Shown in pieces: positions 3,665 through 10,946 of a stretch of DNA of 64,000 nt. The notes beneath the pieces are model-generated. The model ran no database searches. It was not told where the DNA came from and saw only the letters and a program-made list of their open reading frames with translations. The DNA is from Escherichia phage vB_EcoM_WFbE185. The stretch is taken from the sequence record MK373778.1. One strand, given 5' to 3'. Positions within the stretch are counted from its first letter, which is position 1, and the number at the start of each line of letters is the position of its first letter. The position numbers and the translations under genes were made by a program.

Positions 3665-5480
3665 AGGACATCCATTCTTTACGAAGTTCTGAATCATCAC
3701 CCAACAACATTTCAAAGAGTTCTTTCCAATTTTCAGGAAGTTTAACTACGTCGTACACAGGGTTCTGAATCATTTCACGATACTCTGACTTTTCAAGGGA
3801 GCCTAATCCCTTGATGTATCGAATACTATGCTTAGGCAGTGTATCTTTAACTTCTTCATACTCAGCTACAGTATAAAACCATTTTTGAGTTTTGCCAATT
3901 TGTGCAATAATTACAGGTGTTTTAACAAAGCGAATACGTCCTTGTTCAAACAATTCGGGCCAATTACTAAAGAAAGCAAGCAAAGCAGGATAAATACTTC
4001 CAAGACCGTCGTGATCGGCATCGGTCATAATTGCAATATTACGATAGTTCGTATTCTCTGCCTTTTCACCAAGAATAAGACCTGTGATAGCACAGATATC
4101 AAAGAGTTCTTTGTTCTTCATCATATCAGCATATGACATACCCCAGCTATTCATCACCTTACCACGTAATGGGAATCCGCCGTGTAGTTCACGGTCACGA
4201 ACATCAATGAGATAACCAATTGCCGAATCACCTTCTGTTAAAAACAATGTCGTATCTGCATCTTTACCACATTGGTTAGCTTTAATATGCTTATGAACCT
4301 TAGCTTTAGTTGCCTTTTTAGCTGCTTTAGTTTCTGCAGCCTTTTCTGCTGCCAATTTACGAGCTAATGCTGCTTCAACAATAGGCATAATCAAGGCTTC
4401 GTTTTTAAGAAGTGCCTGAGCAATTTTCTTAGCATCTAATTGGATATGATTACGAATATCACCATACGTTGACGTTAAACGTTCTTTAGTCTGAGAATCA
4501 AAACGCATGTTGCTCATGTCTCTAATAAACATCAACATTGTGAGACATTCTTTAACACGAGCTTTAGTGACTTCAATACCCTTATATTTCTTTTTAATAC
4601 CGGGCAAAAGATGTTCGCAGATATCATCCATTACACATTCAACATGATGACCACCATTTTTAGTATGGATGTTATTCACATAAGTTAAATGACGGAAGCC
4701 ATCTGGTGATGTTGTGAATGCTATAGAGACTTTATCATTTTCTTGAATGATGTTATCTTCACCAAATTGTTTAGCAAATCGTTTAAAATTACCATCAACC
4801 TTTTTACCATTAAATGTGAACTTGATATCAGGATAAACGACTGCCAATGTTTGAAGTCTGTCTAAAGTAATATCTAAATAAATTTGAGATAAATTATGCT
4901 CTTCAAATGAAGAGAAATCAGGAGTGAAGATTACTTTAGTGCCTTTACCTTTAGATTTCTTAGAAGACCATGATTTGTTTTCCATTCCGTTTGAACAGTT
5001 AACAGTGATTTCGTTTTCGCCATCTGACGTGATGCCTGTAAACAACGTAGAGAAGATATTAGTTAAACTACTCCCGACGCCGTTCATACCACCAGTCTTG
5101 CGTTCAGAGTCATCACCAAAGTTACCACCGGCCTTTGGAATAGTCCAGGCTGCTACAGGTCCAGGAATTTGTTCACCTGTTTGGTCGGTAACTAAACCTT
5201 GAGGAATACCACGTCCGTTATCTTCCACAGAAACTTGATTATTTTTAATTTGCACATCAATTTTATTTGCAAACTTAAATGATGTACGAATAGCTTCATC
5301 AACCGAGTTGTCAATAATCTCATCGATTAATTTAACCAGACCAGGAACATATTCAACTTGTTGATATTTACCAAACAAAAAACGCTCGTGGGCTTCTTTA
5401 GCAGAAGAACCAATATACATACCACTACGTTTCTTAATATGTTCTACATCTGACAATACCTTAATTTCATTTTTAATCAT
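3663..5480 (-). CDS. 39: DNA topoisomerase II large subunit, unsplit (T4 gp39+gp60 equivalent), 605 aa
   Basis: GyrB-like signature KKRSGMYIGS and EDNGRGIP; continuous 605-aa ORF with no gene-60-type interruption. Confidence 0.9.
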   Translation of the reverse strand: MIKNEIKVLSDVEHIKKRSGMYIGSSAKEAHERFLFGKYQQVEYVPGLVKLIDEIIDNSVDEAIRTSFKFANKIDVQIKNNQVSVEDNGRGIPQGLVTDQTGEQIPGPVAAWTIPKAGGNFGDDSERKTGGMNGVGSSLTNIFSTLFTGITSDGENEITVNCSNGMENKSWSSKKSKGKGTKVIFTPDFSSFEEHNLSQIYLDITLDRLQTLAVVYPDIKFTFNGKKVDGNFKRFAKQFGEDNIIQENDKVSIAFTTSPDGFRHLTYVNNIHTKNGGHHVECVMDDICEHLLPGIKKKYKGIEVTKARVKECLTMLMFIRDMSNMRFDSQTKERLTSTYGDIRNHIQLDAKKIAQALLKNEALIMPIVEAALARKLAAEKAAETKAAKKATKAKVHKHIKANQCGKDADTTLFLTEGDSAIGYLIDVRDRELHGGFPLRGKVMNSWGMSYADMMKNKELFDICAITGLILGEKAENTNYRNIAIMTDADHDGLGSIYPALLAFFSNWPELFEQGRIRFVKTPVIIAQIGKTQKWFYTVAEYEEVKDTLPKHSIRYIKGLGSLEKSEYREMIQNPVYDVVKLPENWKELFEMLLGDDSELRKEWMS

Positions 5481-5527: not shown

Positions 5528-5546
5528 AAAAGGGCCGAAGCCCTTA
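5524..5546 (-). terminator. intrinsic terminator (AAGGGC-UUCG-GCCCUU + UUUUUGCUUU)
   Basis: GC stem with UUCG loop and U5 tract directly after the stop of the 140-aa gene; the U tract overlaps the MotA box. Confidence 0.6.
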
Positions 5547-5966
5547 TTTAAATTTAATTTTCTGAAGTGCATCAATTGCAGCTAAACGCCCTTGTTCACT
5601 TTTAACTGTAATGACCACATCGCCTGATACGATCACCGAACCATCAACAAATTCTATAGAGCCTTTTTTGAAATCGACAGCTGTATCTGATTCAGGAACT
5701 TCTTCAAAGAATTTAAATTCTGCACCGTAAATTAGAATATCACCTTGCATACTAATGATTGTACGTCCAGGTCCATCGGTTTCAGCGGCAATCATTGAAA
5801 CACCATAACCAATCATCTCTTCTACAATAAAATCTCTTGATAATAAAACTGTATGCAGAGTAGTGTTAAGACGTTTACCAGTCGTATTAAGAATTCTCAA
5901 GAAATTATCTTCCTGTCCTTTGATAATACGATATTTCTTACCAACTTCAAAACCTTTAAAAGCCAT
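5544..5966 (-). CDS. hypothetical protein (140 aa)
   Basis: ORF with ATG start adjacent to upstream stop; function unknown. Confidence 0.5.
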   Translation of the reverse strand: MAFKGFEVGKKYRIIKGQEDNFLRILNTTGKRLNTTLHTVLLSRDFIVEEMIGYGVSMIAAETDGPGRTIISMQGDILIYGAEFKFFEEVPESDTAVDFKKGSIEFVDGSVIVSGDVVITVKSEQGRLAAIDALQKIKFK

Positions 5967-5968
5967 AA

Positions 5969-6148
5969 TTAACCCTTCTTAAGTAAGTCGTAAAAACCAC
6001 CGTTCACATGTTTAGGAGCAGAAACCCGACGAGTAGACAGACGATGACATTCAGGGCAAACATCGTTTTCTCGTTCAGAAATTCTTTTAATTTTTTCATA
6101 TTCATGACCACAATCTTCAGATTGACATTTATAGTCGTATAACGGCAT
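5969..6148 (-). CDS. FmdB-family zinc-ribbon small protein (59 aa), not in ORF track
   Basis: Translation [18 protein letters not shown]...CPECH has the two CxxC pairs typical of FmdB-type zinc ribbons; fills the gap exactly, TAATG overlap with upstream gene. Confidence 0.55.
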   Translation of the reverse strand: MPLYDYKCQSEDCGHEYEKIKRISERENDVCPECHRLSTRRVSAPKHVNGGFYDLLKKG

Positions 6149-6579
6149 TATTGTTCCTTAAAGTGAGCTTTCAACATTTGATACAAAGACCATGCCTGGT
6201 CATTATTTTCGATAGTAATCGTCATCACAGGAAATTCAGACAATTCGTCAAGTTCACCAGAATCTTGCTCTTCGGACGCTTGATATGGATTTCCAACTTC
6301 GTCAAAGAACTCTGCTTCATTCGTGGAGAGCCAGATAAAGTTTTCATCAAGGATATCACCGCCTGTTGCGTATCCAACCGTGCCAGTAGATGTCACAATT
6401 TTAGTAGGACGACCAAGATGGTCAACATCTAATACTTTAAATGGTTCCATGCCAAGACGTCGTGCATAAATCCCATTATCAGTGTGGTCTTTAATAAACT
6501 CTTCTTGGGCACGTTTATCTTTAAATTGGTACCATGAGTTAACGCTAAATTTATTAGCCATTAGTAAGTTTCCTTCCAA
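6148..6579 (-). CDS. hypothetical acidic protein (143 aa)
   Basis: ORF in operon context; no recognised motif. Confidence 0.5.
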
Positions 6580-6814: not shown

Positions 6815-7369
6815 CTATAGTATCATAGACCATAGTTGTTGTACATCATTTAGCAAAATAAAATCAACTTGTTCTGCCAATGAACGTCTGAACATTAATT
6901 GACAACTTCCGAGGATGAAATCAGGTGCTTCATAGACCGCGATGTAGTATCCTTTAGCTTTCAAAAGTTCAACATCCACCTGGTCATCAAACCATGCATA
7001 AACCGCGTCAACACTTTCAAATCCAAAATAGAACCCTTTAGCCCAATCTTCACTCAATTCAAATGTGTGCTCAATTCTATAGTATCTTAAGATATTTTGT
7101 TCAAGGAGTTTGTCTTCATTTACTGTAGGACGATTAGGGACATTATAGTTGTCGCCGTGATGGTAGAAGTTACCTGAGAGTATTCCATGCTTATCAAGGA
7201 ACTCCCATGTTTCTTCAGAGTTGTCGGTGCCCGACCAACCGTATGGCGAACGAGGTTCTTTATTCCAAGAGGTTTCCCAAATTCTGACGGCTTTACCGTC
7301 TTCGATAGCAATTCCTGGTAATGATTCACGTTGAGTACAAAAACTACGTTCTACGCGGTAAACTAACAT
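6815..7369 (-). CDS. hypothetical protein (184 aa)
   Basis: ORF with upstream promoter at 7396-7424. Confidence 0.5.
   Translation of the reverse strand: MLVYRVERSFCTQRESLPGIAIEDGKAVRIWETSWNKEPRSPYGWSGTDNSEETWEFLDKHGILSGNFYHHGDNYNVPNRPTVNEDKLLEQNILRYYRIEHTFELSEDWAKGFYFGFESVDAVYAWFDDQVDVELLKAKGYYIAVYEAPDFILGSCQLMFRRSLAEQVDFILLNDVQQLWSMIL
6817..6845 (-). promoter_or_regulatory. early-type sigma70 promoter (-35 TGTACA, -10 TACTAT with TGn)
   Basis: Member of a repeated intergenic consensus TGTTAtTATAGACCTATCAAC with GTTTAC/TGTACA 17-18 bp upstream. Confidence 0.5.
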
Positions 7370-7395
7370 ATTATTCTCCTCTGGTTGATATGGTT

Positions 7396-7424
7396 ATAAT
7401 ATCAAAACCAGAGGAGAAGTAAAC
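7396..7424 (-). promoter_or_regulatory. early-type promoter (-35 GTTTAC, 17 bp, -10 TATTAT)
   Basis: GTTTAC-N17-TATTAT on minus strand; flanking inverted repeat CTGGTT...AACCAG. Confidence 0.55.
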
Positions 7425-7428
7425 TACT

Positions 7429-7848
7429 TTATGCAAAAGATGCTTGGCTATATCCTTTGATTTGGAATTCAGGAACTACCATGAACTGTCCAGCGAAAAC
7501 GATGTTATAAAGCTTAACACCATCTTCTACCCAATGGTCGCTAATAAATCCGGCGATTTGCTTAGTTTTCCATGGTGTTCCATCAGTTGCCGCAGCAATA
7601 GTGAATTCATGGTCTTTTTCAACAGAAACTGATCTGCATAGTCCCCATTTGAACGCTTTTTCTTCTGGTTCAATGAATTGGCTTTTAACGTAGCCAATGT
7701 TACCATCGGCGTCACGAACTTTAACTTCGTTACGTCCAAAAACCGGATCACTCACAGAAAGAACTTCAACCAACTTCCCAGCAACTTTAGAGCGAGAAGC
7801 AACAGATACATATACGTAATCACCTGTAGAGAGATTTACAATATTCAT
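7429..7848 (-). CDS. paralog family protein A (139 aa)
   Basis: Shares RSK(V/A)AGKLVEV and D(H/Q)WVEDG.KLYNIVF.G.F.VV motifs with the next two genes. Confidence 0.5.
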   Translation of the reverse strand: MNIVNLSTGDYVYVSVASRSKVAGKLVEVLSVSDPVFGRNEVKVRDADGNIGYVKSQFIEPEEKAFKWGLCRSVSVEKDHEFTIAAATDGTPWKTKQIAGFISDHWVEDGVKLYNIVFAGQFMVVPEFQIKGYSQASFA

Positions 7849-7857
7849 AATAATTCC

Positions 7858-8322
7858 TTAAGCTTTACGAGGAGACACATAGCGAGTGATTTCAGATTCT
7901 TTAACAACTCGGAAGTCACCTAAGAATACGATATTGTATAACTTTTCACCATCTTCAACCCATTGGTCACTAATGAAGCCACACATAGTATCAGTTTTGC
8001 TTGGATAACCGTATTCATCGATGAAGTCAAATTCTTTATCAGTCTGGAATTCAACGCCTTTGCAAAGGGCCCATTTGAACTGTGTAGTAGGCTCAACTAT
8101 ATCGCTTGAAGCAAAGTGGGCACTTACACGAGTTTCCAAGAATTTAGGACTTACATAGGCGAACTGAGTTTCAGTTTTTCCAGAACTAGGAATGATTCGA
8201 ACTTTAACTTCTTTAATACGGCCCATGCCATTAGTACGAAGTCCTACTACTTCAACCAGCTTTCCTGCAGCTTTAGAACGAGACGCTGTCGATACACGTT
8301 TAATTTCACCAATATTAATCAT
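7858..8322 (-). CDS. paralog family protein B (start moved to Met22; alternative start 8385)
   Basis: Paralog of 7429-7848; the promoter-like element at 8354-8382 lies inside the longer ORF. Confidence 0.45.
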   Translation of the reverse strand: MINIGEIKRVSTASRSKAAGKLVEVVGLRTNGMGRIKEVKVRIIPSSGKTETQFAYVSPKFLETRVSAHFASSDIVEPTTQFKWALCKGVEFQTDKEFDFIDEYGYPSKTDTMCGFISDQWVEDGEKLYNIVFLGDFRVVKESEITRYVSPRKA

Positions 8323-8353
8323 ATTTTTTCTCTCTTTGTTTAAATTGAATTCA

Positions 8354-8382
8354 TTATACTCCATCCATCCTTGGATGTACAA
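8354..8382 (-). promoter_or_regulatory. promoter with palindromic spacer (TGTACA, CATCC-TT-GGATG, TATAAT)
   Basis: Variant of the repeated hairpin-promoter element seen at 8911, 51151 and 52171. Confidence 0.4.
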
Positions 8383-8384
8383 CA

Positions 8385-8879
8385 TTAATTTAGAATATTA
8401 ACTACTGCACTACGTGGAACAACGCTAAAATCACCGGCATGAACAACGTTCAGAAGTTCAACCCCATCTTCAATCCACTGATCAGTTACCCATCCACTCA
8501 CTGGACCTGCGAACGGACGACGAATTGAAACAGCTTTACACAACAAATCAGTAGGCTCAATAGGCTTAATCAGAGTACCGTACATACAAGCGATATCCAT
8601 ATCAGTACAGATGTCTTTAACGGGTTCTACTTCTTCAACCAACAGTTCAAAGTCGGTGCTTGGAAGGGCGGTAGTAGAAATTGTACCGTATGAATTTTTA
8701 ATTTCTAAGAATAACCAAGGGCCTTCAGCTTGTTTGATGAAGTTAATAATAGTGAAACTATTACCTTGAGTGGCACCTAAAATTTCACAAAACTTTTCAT
8801 AAGCTCGCACTGAAGCACCGTACCAGTTGATTTGTTTTTCGTCTTTCAGGATGTAAGTAGCCGTAGTATTGATATTCAT
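8385..8879 (-). CDS. paralog family protein C (164 aa)
   Basis: C-terminal WVTDQWIEDGVELLNVVHAGDFSVV matches the paralog motif. Confidence 0.5.
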   Translation of the reverse strand: MNINTTATYILKDEKQINWYGASVRAYEKFCEILGATQGNSFTIINFIKQAEGPWLFLEIKNSYGTISTTALPSTDFELLVEEVEPVKDICTDMDIACMYGTLIKPIEPTDLLCKAVSIRRPFAGPVSGWVTDQWIEDGVELLNVVHAGDFSVVPRSAVVNILN

Positions 8880-8910
8880 AATGTTTTTCCTGTTTGGTTA
8901 AGATAGAAAG

Positions 8911-8940
8911 ATTATACTCCAACCATCCTTGGTTGTAAAC
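8911..8940 (-). promoter_or_regulatory. early promoter (-35 GTTTAC, -10 TATAAT) with 6-bp stem hairpin CAACCA-AGGA-TGGTTG in the spacer
   Basis: A 46-bp element identical to the one at 51135-51180. Confidence 0.55.
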
Positions 8941-8945
8941 TGGTT

Positions 8946-9623
8946 TTATCGCTGTTTTACACTTAACGGGTCAGGATTCTCAGGGACATCTTCAAGGCCA
9001 AGCGCATAACGCTGAGCATATTTTAACATCAAAATATCTTTAGCACAATCGTGAATACTATCATGGGCAACGAATCCTTTCAGCGTACCCATCGGTAATG
9101 GACACATACTTAATCCTCGTGTCAACGAGTAAGCTTCGATTGCCGTACGAATATCGCGTTGAGCCCAGAATTTAACCGGTTCTAATTTATCAGTATCAAT
9201 ATCTGGTTCAAGAACACCTTCATCACGATAGAGGTCACGAATCAAATCGACCAAGATCGGGAAGTCAAAGCTCATACCACGGCACCACATCTGTGATTTC
9301 CATTGGTCAACTTTATTAGCTCGACAATAATCTAAAAAGATTTTAATGCCTTCAAGCGTAGTGACATCGTCTTCAGACGGAGCCAAGTTTTTACGCGCTT
9401 CAGCCGATTGTTCTTTCCACCATTTCATAGTGGATTTAGCGAAAACTCGCTTCCCTTTCTGAGAAGCTAAATTAAATTTAATTCGCTTACCTCGTTGAAC
9501 AAGTTCTTCAAATGATTCAACAACTTCAGGGTCGGAATTATATGCAATAACCGCAAGGTCAATAACAGCCGCTTTTGATGTATTGCCGAATGTTTCAAAA
9601 TCTATAATAACATCAGTGCTCAT
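8946..9623 (-). CDS. dexA: exonuclease A (DEDDh 3'-5' exonuclease)
   Basis: 225 aa; VIIDFETFG motif; size and position match T4 DexA next to dda. Confidence 0.8.
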   Translation of the reverse strand: MSTDVIIDFETFGNTSKAAVIDLAVIAYNSDPEVVESFEELVQRGKRIKFNLASQKGKRVFAKSTMKWWKEQSAEARKNLAPSEDDVTTLEGIKIFLDYCRANKVDQWKSQMWCRGMSFDFPILVDLIRDLYRDEGVLEPDIDTDKLEPVKFWAQRDIRTAIEAYSLTRGLSMCPLPMGTLKGFVAHDSIHDCAKDILMLKYAQRYALGLEDVPENPDPLSVKQR

Positions 9624-9632
9624 AATTTTCTC

Positions 9633-10946
9633 TCAAATAAAATGGACGTCAAACCGGCCACGAGTTGTGCCGACATACAATAACTGTTTAGCTAATTCTG
9701 AATCGGCATAATGGATACACGGTGTATAAACAAAGGCCGTGTCAACAGACATACCCTGGGCCTTATGGAAGGTTGATACTGGTAGTGCCTTCACCTTAGT
9801 GAACATACGTTTAGCATCCCAGAATTCGCTCCATGGAGCTTTACCACCTTTATTCCAGAATTTGTATGTTTCTGCGGTCTTAGCCAAAAACAAATTGAAT
9901 TTATAAAGCTCTTCTTCAGAAGAAATAACCTTTATATCTTCTCGGATATATTCTTCATCATCCCCATATGTTTCTACTGTAAGATTCCAGTATCGTATCA
10001 TATATTCGCCTGAAACGCCACGTGCTTTAACGAATGTAGACGTTTCTACAGCATCTCGAATACGAACGAATTGCCCGTTATTGAAAAGCATTTCAGTCAT
10101 ATTTTTGCCATCTAGCTTGTACGTCTTAGTAAACGGCTCTTGTAGAACAATGACTTCGTCTTTAATAAATGGTTTTTCTGTTTCAAGAAGTTTTCGGCGA
10201 ATAATTGAATTTAACTTGTCCACCGACTTATTTGTGAATGCCATCATTCGATTTTCGAAAAGGTCTTCAGGAGTTTTAACGACGTTAAAATAGTTCATCA
10301 TATACGATTTAAGGTCTGTATATCCATGAACACCGTGCCCATCAACTACTTTATCGTAAATCCATTTGCCATTACGAATATCAGTCGCAACATCAATAAT
10401 TGGTGCATTGCTACGTTTAACTTCTGTAAGGTTGCATTGCACGAAGTCTTTGTGAGTGAAGAAAGGACTTAGATACGCAGCTGATTCGCCTGGGTCTACC
10501 GGACGAATCTGGCATCGGTCACCAATTCCAATTACTGTGCACCATTTAGGGATACTAGCTAACATTATTTTAAACAGAGAACGGTCACACATTGACGCTT
10601 CATCAAATAACAGTACACGACACAAGGCTAAGTCGGGAACCTTTTTCTGTTCAAACAATACGTTTTCTTCGTATGTAGTTGGGTTGATTTTAAGAATGCT
10701 ATGAATAGTCGATGCTTCTTGACCGGCAAGTTTGCTTAGAACCTTTTTAGCAGCATGTGTAGGGGCTGCTAAAATAATACCTGATTCTCCGGCAGAAATA
10801 AGAGCTTCAACGATGAATCTAGTAAGGGTTGTTTTACCTGTACCAGCGGGCCCATTAATAGTTACGTGATGTTTCTTTTCTTTAATAGCGTTCATAACAA
10901 CGTTGAAGGCGTTTTTCTGACCTTCAGTCAAATCATCAAATGTCAT
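9633..10946 (-). CDS. dda: Dda DNA helicase (SF1)
   Basis: 437 aa; Walker A INGPAGTGKTT; size and context match T4 Dda. Confidence 0.85.
   Translation of the reverse strand: MTFDDLTEGQKNAFNVVMNAIKEKKHHVTINGPAGTGKTTLTRFIVEALISAGESGIILAAPTHAAKKVLSKLAGQEASTIHSILKINPTTYEENVLFEQKKVPDLALCRVLLFDEASMCDRSLFKIMLASIPKWCTVIGIGDRCQIRPVDPGESAAYLSPFFTHKDFVQCNLTEVKRSNAPIIDVATDIRNGKWIYDKVVDGHGVHGYTDLKSYMMNYFNVVKTPEDLFENRMMAFTNKSVDKLNSIIRRKLLETEKPFIKDEVIVLQEPFTKTYKLDGKNMTEMLFNNGQFVRIRDAVETSTFVKARGVSGEYMIRYWNLTVETYGDDEEYIREDIKVISSEEELYKFNLFLAKTAETYKFWNKGGKAPWSEFWDAKRMFTKVKALPVSTFHKAQGMSVDTAFVYTPCIHYADSELAKQLLYVGTTRGRFDVHFI

Follow-up and report, generated by a model that had tools for sequence, protein, structure and literature searches.

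Three adjacent genes lie on the minus strand of the window (the whole 64-kb stretch of phage DNA analysed here), where the original prediction had placed them and with the lengths that it gave (for ORF2, close to its 'about 155'): ORF3 (8385–8879, 164 aa), ORF2 (7858–8322, 154 aa) and ORF1 (7429–7848, 139 aa). A 2.9-kb query around the trio is 98.3% identical at the DNA level to Mosigvirus moskry (an Escherichia phage) and 95–97% identical to many RB69-like phages, and we assign the window by sequence to Mosigvirus, as an RB69-like T-even phage. Along the transcribed strand, dda (9633–10946) is followed by dexA (8946–9623), ORF3, ORF2, ORF1, a motB.2 homolog (184 aa, 6815–7369), cef and a goF-like gene, then by the 39.2 zinc-ribbon gene, another goF-like gene and gene 39. 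The trio therefore sits in the dexA–cef interval on the early-transcribed strand of a T-even genome, the location that defines MotB proper. These genes are very probably the motB.1, motB and motB-like genes of an RB69-type Mosigvirus, members of an early, non-essential host-takeover family encoded between dexA and cef. The 184-aa ORF at 6815–7369, which some records label 'MotB' or 'transcriptional regulator', was considered as a fourth paralog and rejected: it lacks a Pfam motB match, is not matched by the HMMs for the shared C-terminal domain, the KOW domain or the LSm domain, and is the homolog of T4 motB.2 (phrog_1106).

The central gene, ORF2, is identified as the T4 MotB ortholog by position and sequence. 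Its longest frame (7858–8385) would encode 175 aa, but its 21 extra N-terminal codons fall on promoter-like sequence. The ATG at 8322 (MINIGEIK...) aligns with the starts of T4 MotB (MIINIGE) and RB51 MotB (MITIGE) and is preceded by the same purine-rich leader, so the 154-aa product is the most likely one. Along its entire length ORF2 matches Pfam motB (E = 1e-40); it also matches phrog_1671 (E = 6e-66) and is 84% identical to RB51 MotB. With T4 MotB it shares the dexA–cef position, the start context, the full-length Pfam match, a basic KOW-like N-terminal domain (net charge of the barrel +7, as against +5 in T4) and the conserved C-terminal domain. It differs from T4 MotB in being the RB69/RB51-type allele, its C-terminal domain being only ~50% identical to that of T4 MotB and 82% identical to that of RB51 MotB.

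ORF1 encodes a second, shorter MotB paralog (Pfam motB, E = 3e-21; phrog_1671, E = 1e-50). It is 15 residues shorter than ORF2, having lost a RIIPSSGK loop and part of the linker, which is ~13 residues shorter than its ORF2 counterpart. Its architecture is that of T4 MotB, but it is a separate, shorter and acidic protein (pI 5.7, N-terminal domain net charge −1) that T4 itself lacks. The gene begins 9 nt past the ORF2 stop (TAAGGAattattATG) and has a TAAGGA Shine-Dalgarno sequence, and is therefore probably co-transcribed and translationally coupled with ORF2. Orthologs of the same length (139 aa), at least 88% identical and in the same place downstream of motB, are RB69p010, RB51ncORF010c and RB32ORF010c. 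No difference of substance separates them from ORF1; they have been annotated since the original RB-phage genome submissions, and the GenBank entry for RB51ncORF010c reads 'similar to motB and RB32ORF010c'.

ORF3 matches phrog_2333 over its full length (E = 7e-82) and aligns along its whole length with the T4 and RB51 MotB.1 proteins, and is assigned as MotB.1 ('Category 2' of Patterson-West 2021) on sequence; Pfam motB matches residues 85–159 only. The protein is acidic throughout (pI 4.5). In its AF2 model (pLDDT 79) a disordered linker (residues ~86–106) connects an LSm/SH3-like N-terminal barrel, which contains an inserted helix, to a C-terminal MotB-type barrel (GWVTDQWIEDGVELLNVVHAGDFSVVPRS). 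This is the arrangement of MotB.1 and the phage LSm-like proteins, i.e. a bent five-stranded antiparallel N-terminal barrel joined by a flexible linker to the C-terminal domain. It resembles T4 MotB.1 in its N-terminal domain (LSm-domain HMM, E = 1e-40), in lying immediately upstream of motB and in its C-terminal domain, which is 84% identical to that of intact T4 MotB.1. In ORF3 and in RB51 MotB.1 the linker is extended by a DMDIACMYGTLIKP segment, and these proteins measure 164–169 aa, compared with 143 aa for T4 MotB.1. The 119-aa annotation of MotB.1 in the T4 reference is cut short by a frameshift absent from other T4 sequences. The MotB.1 N-terminal domain has been described as LSm-like, as have GoF and Frd.2 (Kim et al. 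2025, PMC12152347). Comparison of the ORF3 N-terminal domain with the two goF-like proteins of the window detected no relationship by BLASTP (E = 0.4) or hhalign (probability 1%), apart from a weak PHROG cross-match (E = 0.004), so the link between ORF3 and goF depends on the published structure comparison.

The relationship among the three proteins is of two kinds. ORF1 and ORF2 are 43% identical across their full length (BLASTP, E = 2e-32), whereas ORF3 aligns with ORF1 (E = 2e-11) and with ORF2 (E = 2e-10) through its C-terminal part only, the portion in common being the last ~55–75 residues. All three pass the gathering score of 25 bits for Pfam PF17613 'motB' (ORF1, 76.4; ORF2, 139.6; ORF3, 35.2), and profile–profile comparison (hhalign) of the ORF1/ORF2 family with the ORF3 family returns a probability of 98.5% and an E value of 3.8e-15. 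A C-terminal-domain HMM run against the six-frame translation of the window finds exactly three copies and no fourth, the next best match having an E value of 1.6. The original prediction drew its three paralogs from two shared blocks. RSKxAGKLVEV is present in ORF1 (RSKVAGKLVEV) and ORF2 (RSKAAGKLVEV) and absent from ORF3, whose N-terminal domain shows no sequence relationship to theirs; DxWVEDGxKLYNIVFxGxFxVV is found in all three, exactly in ORF1 and ORF2 and in degenerate form in ORF3 (DQWIEDGVELLNVVHAGDFSVV). The similarity goes well beyond chance, with ORF1 and ORF2 as full-length paralogs and ORF3 as a domain-level one. That ORF3 lacks the first block is the only observation on the side of a chance or compositional similarity among unrelated small ORFs, a reading that is refuted by the BLASTP, Pfam and hhalign statistics and by the restriction of HMM matches to these three genes, and to which we assign next to no probability. 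Within MotB proper, both ORF1 and ORF2 display the two-domain layout (a KOW-like N-terminal domain with SRSKaAGklVEV and a C-terminal domain with FKW...DQWVEDGvKLYN), and an alignment of the MotB family that includes the ORF1 type has 33 invariant columns. A KOW HMM matches ORF1 and ORF2 at E values of 1e-28 to 1e-32 but finds no match in ORF3, which has a different N-terminal domain and hence not the MotB-proper architecture.

Each protein is predicted to be a pair of small SH3-like beta-barrels with a linker between them, the C-terminal barrel being common to all three. The N-terminal barrel is predicted to be KOW-like in ORF1 and ORF2 and LSm/SH3-like with an inserted helix in ORF3. In the AF2 models each half has five strands with a 3-10 turn ahead of the last strand. 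Judged by the order of its strands, the C-terminal domain common to the three proteins may be SH3-like and not an OB-fold, the assignment made with HHpred that gave the published architecture of KOW plus OB-fold (PMC7827196). Structural matches to the models include many single Tudor, PsaE and SH3-like domains, and a Foldseek search of BFVD recovers MotB-like two-barrel proteins across Straboviridae (Potts1, phiR1-RT, EcS1, Merlin, PS2 and CC31). A phmmer search of PDB sequences with ORF2 and ORF3 gave nothing below an E value of 0.03, and the best matches, the SH3 domain of Fyn-binding protein (E = 0.03) and fusicoccadiene synthase (E = 0.52), are not meaningful. Resemblance to the KOW domain of NusG/Spt5 or to tandem Tudor/SH3-like pairs (53BP1, KIN17) would be structural analogy or very distant homology, not membership of those families.

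Strong sigma-70-like elements lie upstream of two of the genes. A promoter-like site precedes ORF3 (8911–8939, minus strand; TTTACA, 17 nt, TATAAT; 11 of 12 consensus matches), in a gTTTACA context like that of T4 early promoters, and another precedes ORF2 (8353–8381, minus strand; TGTACA, 17 nt, TATAAT; 10 of 12). T4 and RB51 have a GTTTAC...TATAAT element before motB at the same position as the ORF2 site. A scan of the region with a sigma-70-like consensus yields no more sites than shuffled sequence does, so the promoter function of these elements is inferred from their position and the T4 early-promoter consensus. A repeat search shows that both sites lie within a 57-nt promoter-plus-leader repeat, with one copy before ORF2 (8323–8379, minus strand) and the other before ORF3 (8881–8937, minus strand). 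The copies are 75% identical, and 16 of 18 positions match in the spacer between the hexamers. No copy is found in front of ORF1. Adjacent, co-oriented, significantly similar and with shared flanking non-coding sequence, ORF3 and ORF2 have the features of tandem paralogs from local duplication.

Part of the original prediction was that this region is otherwise single-copy in T4-type genomes, and this proved incorrect. Counting C-terminal domains in the dexA–cef interval of sampled phages gives three copies in the window, moskry, pEB20 and RB69 (all Mosigvirus) and in RB51 (Tequatrovirus), and two in T4 (Tequatrovirus; motB and motB.1), IME08 (Dhakavirus) and VR26 (Gaprivervirus). CrRp10 (Tequatrovirus) has two KOW-type copies and a 24-aa remnant of MotB.1. 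The only single-copy phages in the sample are Entb_45 (Kanagawavirus) and PWKp16 (Marfavirus), both of distant genera. Of 777 phage records with any match to ORF1, 207 contain an ORF1-type ortholog with at least 80% identity; ORF3 has matches in 756 phage records, ~450 of them only to the MotB.1-type C-terminal domain. A C-terminal-domain profile run against 1.84 billion representative proteins returned only 33 matches, of which ~25 are credible, all to small proteins. At the sensitivity of HMMER, then, the domain is not common beyond this phage group. The long multi-stretch profile matches (E = 1e-5 to 1e-3) resemble repeat noise.

The predicted local duplication and divergence is borne out by adjacency, common strand, shared domain and the 57-nt repeat, but the event is old and not recent. 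ORF1 and ORF2 are 43–49% identical and dS between them is saturated (about 1.7). The paralogs are not each other's closest relatives, as a recent lineage-specific duplication would require: in the C-terminal domain ORF2 is nearer to RB51 MotB than to ORF1 (82% compared with 52%), and in a neighbour-joining tree of that domain (about 60 columns) ORF1 falls outside all MotB orthologs while ORF3 groups with the single-copy Klebsiella-phage genes. Either the duplications are ancient or copies have been laterally exchanged. The MotB.1-type C-terminal domain is very conserved (68–97% identity) and is 73–75% identical to that of the single-copy gene of Klebsiella phages, in which a KOW domain forms the N-terminal part; MotB-type C-terminal domains are 44–57% identical across genera and allele types. 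From these sequence comparisons the MotB.1-type domain looks like the ancestral form. The ancestor would have been one gene combining a KOW-like domain at the N terminus with a MotB.1-type domain at the C terminus, an arrangement that some Klebsiella and Enterobacter phages still have, and it would then have duplicated in tandem. One copy would have retained the C-terminal domain and gained a new N-terminal domain, becoming MotB.1, and the other would have kept its KOW domain while its C-terminal domain diverged, becoming MotB. ORF1 may have arisen from a further duplication of the MotB copy, or as a divergent allele from another phage.

The second of these origins would make ORF1 a motB allele acquired by recombination with another T-even phage and lodged beside the resident motB, in which case ORF1 would be a pseudo-paralog and the trio a mosaic. 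The ORF1-type gene is unevenly distributed within Tequatrovirus, with one in RB51 and CrRp10 and none in T4, and the Tequatrovirus versions are 88% identical to the Mosigvirus copy, as compared with the ~50% that separates the C-terminal domains of T4 MotB and ORF2. RB51 carries a Mosigvirus-like motB.1–motB–010c cassette, CrRp10 pairs a T4-type motB with an ORF1-type gene, and the position of ORF1 outside all MotB orthologs in the tree would also fit. Mosaic or chimeric proteins exist as well (P0028, P0029, P0031 and P0038); the first three, from public assemblies, combine a motB-type N-terminal with an ORF1-type C-terminal domain and result either from recombination at the conserved DQWVEDG block or from chimeric assembly. 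However, no lineage with an ORF1-type gene as its sole motB was found among the 777 matching records and the sampled genomes, and ORF1 is always directly downstream of motB, a placement for which an old tandem duplication with later losses accounts equally well. Lateral spread of the whole cassette after duplication in situ likewise fits the data. We consider acquisition of ORF1 from another phage unlikely, though still a serious alternative to duplication of the motB copy in place.

Highly improbable, and largely refuted, is the idea that ORF1 is a redundant motB duplicate decaying into a pseudogene. Its shortened loop and linker and its shift to an acidic charge could be taken in that sense, as could its greater variability relative to its neighbours (88% identity to pEB20, compared with 97% for ORF2 and 96% for ORF3). 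The gene nevertheless shows dN/dS values of 0.15–0.27 against three orthologs, its product is exactly 139 aa long in nearly all of 25 close clusters and in the 207 phage records, AF2 folds it well and with confidence (pLDDT 86.7), and it retains the invariant columns of the family. Compared with RB51, dN/dS is 0.15 for ORF1, 0.18 for ORF2 and 0.27 for ORF3; the estimates as a whole (about 0.15–0.28) indicate purifying selection on all three genes. Together with the maintenance of ORF1 length and sequence in the 207 records, this argues that all three are functional.

Ideas on function come from T4. There MotB is an abundant early protein that binds DNA tightly, whatever its sequence and whether or not it is modified. 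It co-purifies with H-NS and StpA, doubles the burst size and is toxic on over-expression (PMC6070864); it also alters the footprint of H-NS and raises the expression of part of its regulon (PMC7827196). By analogy, ORF2 would be made within minutes of infection from its sigma-70 early promoter, would coat double-stranded DNA without sequence specificity and shift H-NS on the DNA, and would modestly increase burst size. We have moderate confidence in this MotB-like role of DNA coating and H-NS remodelling, against which it counts that the function is transferred from a T4 protein only ~50% identical in the C-terminal domain. The charge of the N-terminal domain is compatible with DNA binding in ORF2 (+7) and makes MotB-like DNA coating doubtful for the acidic ORF1 (−1). 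ORF1 would be co-expressed with ORF2 and has kept the predicted fold without the basic charge; it would probably bind nucleic acid more weakly or differently, or act through the shared C-terminal barrel, and we regard it as a sub- or neo-functionalised copy. ORF3 would present the shared C-terminal barrel on an RNA-chaperone-like barrel, and its role is possibly RNA-related; in T4, deletion of motB.1 gives no phenotype and MotB.1 is without effect in a reporter assay (PMC12152347). PADLOC and NCBIfam gave no matches, and there is thus no link to known defence or anti-defence families.

A more speculative view, which we think improbable, is that the acidic and very highly conserved C-terminal barrel common to the three proteins is not the DNA-binding part but a docking or oligomerisation module. 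It would bring three different N-terminal barrels, a basic KOW (DNA), an acidic KOW and an LSm-like one (RNA), to one target or into a hetero-oligomeric phage 'chromatin' complex. An arms race with defence systems or nucleoid proteins of the host would then lie behind the rise in copy number from one through two to three and behind the frequent swaps of N-terminal domains.

Much of this picture was already in the literature and in GenBank annotations, and the analysis adds little that is new on the paralogy itself. MotB and MotB.1 were reported to share a C-terminal domain, probably by duplication, and RB69 to carry two motB genes, one motB.1 and a 29-aa peptide (Patterson-West et al. 2021, PMC7827196), so the trio has in essence been described. 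What the comparison offers is a family series running from one copy in Kanagawavirus and Marfavirus, through two in T4, Dhakavirus and Gaprivervirus, to three in Mosigvirus and some Tequatrovirus, together with structure models suggesting that both barrels are SH3/KOW/Tudor-like, in place of the KOW and OB-fold that were published. The frameshift in MotB.1, which is confined to the T4 reference sequence, affects constructs designed from it. ORF1, which lacks the basic charge presumed to underlie DNA coating, would be a natural comparison partner for dissecting MotB function.

The MotB.1 protein of the T4 reference genome owes its annotated length of 119 aa to one extra G. At approximately 7290–7320 of NC_000866.4 (about 2290–2320 of the comparison locus L003, outside the window), the record reads GGATTGGAAGATGG rather than GGATTGAAGATGG, and the other 29 codons of motB.1 (LEDGVELLNVVHAGEYSVVPRSAVVAILN) are undamaged in the following frame. 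The added base is confined to AF158101.6 and NC_000866.4; 13 further T4, T4T, RB55 and RB59 records do not contain it, and in T4 GT7 the gene is undisrupted and encodes a product of 143 aa. Kim et al. 2025 (PMC12152347) had their MotB.1 constructs synthesized and cloned, and they give T4 positions in the numbering of NC_000866.4, stating this outright for the motB.1 amber plasmid. If the expression constructs follow the annotation of this record, they would carry the conserved C-terminal domain of MotB.1 without its end.

The RB69 reference motB.1 (NC_004928; 3877–4373 of locus L006) is also split, into ORFs of 132 aa and 29 aa, by two insertions of one base each that the window and other Mosigviruses lack. 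What Patterson-West 2021 (PMC7827196) termed the 'Category 3 peptide' is the shorter of these ORFs, and it looks like the outcome of an error in sequencing or of a disruption specific to the strain rather than a gene of its own. A further annotation problem concerns motB itself, for which many GenBank records (e.g. moskry) use a long start giving a 175-aa version that overlaps the stop codon (TAATG) of ORF3, the MotB.1 homolog. This long start is probably mis-annotated, because the extension (8323–8385 in the window; 4525–4587 in locus L001) is made up of the promoter region, and RB51 and T4 show no conservation of it.

Chimeric MotB proteins occur in public assemblies (P0028, P0029, P0031 and P0038): some join an N-terminal domain and linker of the motB type to a C-terminal domain of the type found in ORF1, the second motB-like paralog, in some the switch falls at the conserved DQWVEDG block, and one mixes T4-type with RB69-type segments. 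Such proteins arose either by natural recombination, between the tandem copies or between alleles, or as chimeras of short-read assembly. In CrRp10, the unannotated dexA–motB spacer retains 24 aa of the MotB.1 C-terminal domain as a remnant (~2340–2416 of locus L005), and some metagenomic MotB.1 relatives of 241–244 aa (P0094 and P0101) look like a truncated MotB.1 fused to a full one. Together, the remnant and the fusion-like proteins indicate repeated deletion and fusion at the motB locus. The motB.2 homolog (6815–7369, minus strand; phrog_1106) shares 43% identity with RB51 motB.2. In the window and in RB69 it is located downstream of the motB genes, whereas motB.2 of T4, RB51 and IME08 is sited between dexA and motB.1, and the locus has therefore undergone local rearrangement. 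Despite being labelled 'MotB' or 'transcriptional regulator' in some records, the motB.2 homolog contains no MotB domain.

Upstream of this ORF, a strong RNA hairpin is predicted on the minus strand at 7374–7418 (−23.9 kcal/mol, z −5.8; UUCUCCUCUGGUU paired with AACCAGAGGAGAA), which sequesters the motB.2 homolog's Shine-Dalgarno sequence. The −10 element of a candidate early-type promoter (7423–7396, minus strand; TTTACT, 16 nt, TATTAT) falls within the hairpin. Read-through transcripts from the motB genes would be translationally masked for the motB.2 homolog, and those initiated at the candidate promoter would not. The predicted layout resembles known T4 cases.

Further along the minus strand, the products of two goF-like genes (5544–5966 and 6148–6579) both match phrog_622, a goF-like family (E 4.5e-19 and 3e-39), and BLASTP of the two proteins against each other gave no significant match (E 0.4). 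The 3.4-kb stretch from these genes to ORF3 may encode, alongside its three proteins with a MotB C-terminal domain, three members of the LSm-like N-terminal-domain family described in the literature, namely ORF3 and the two goF-like products.
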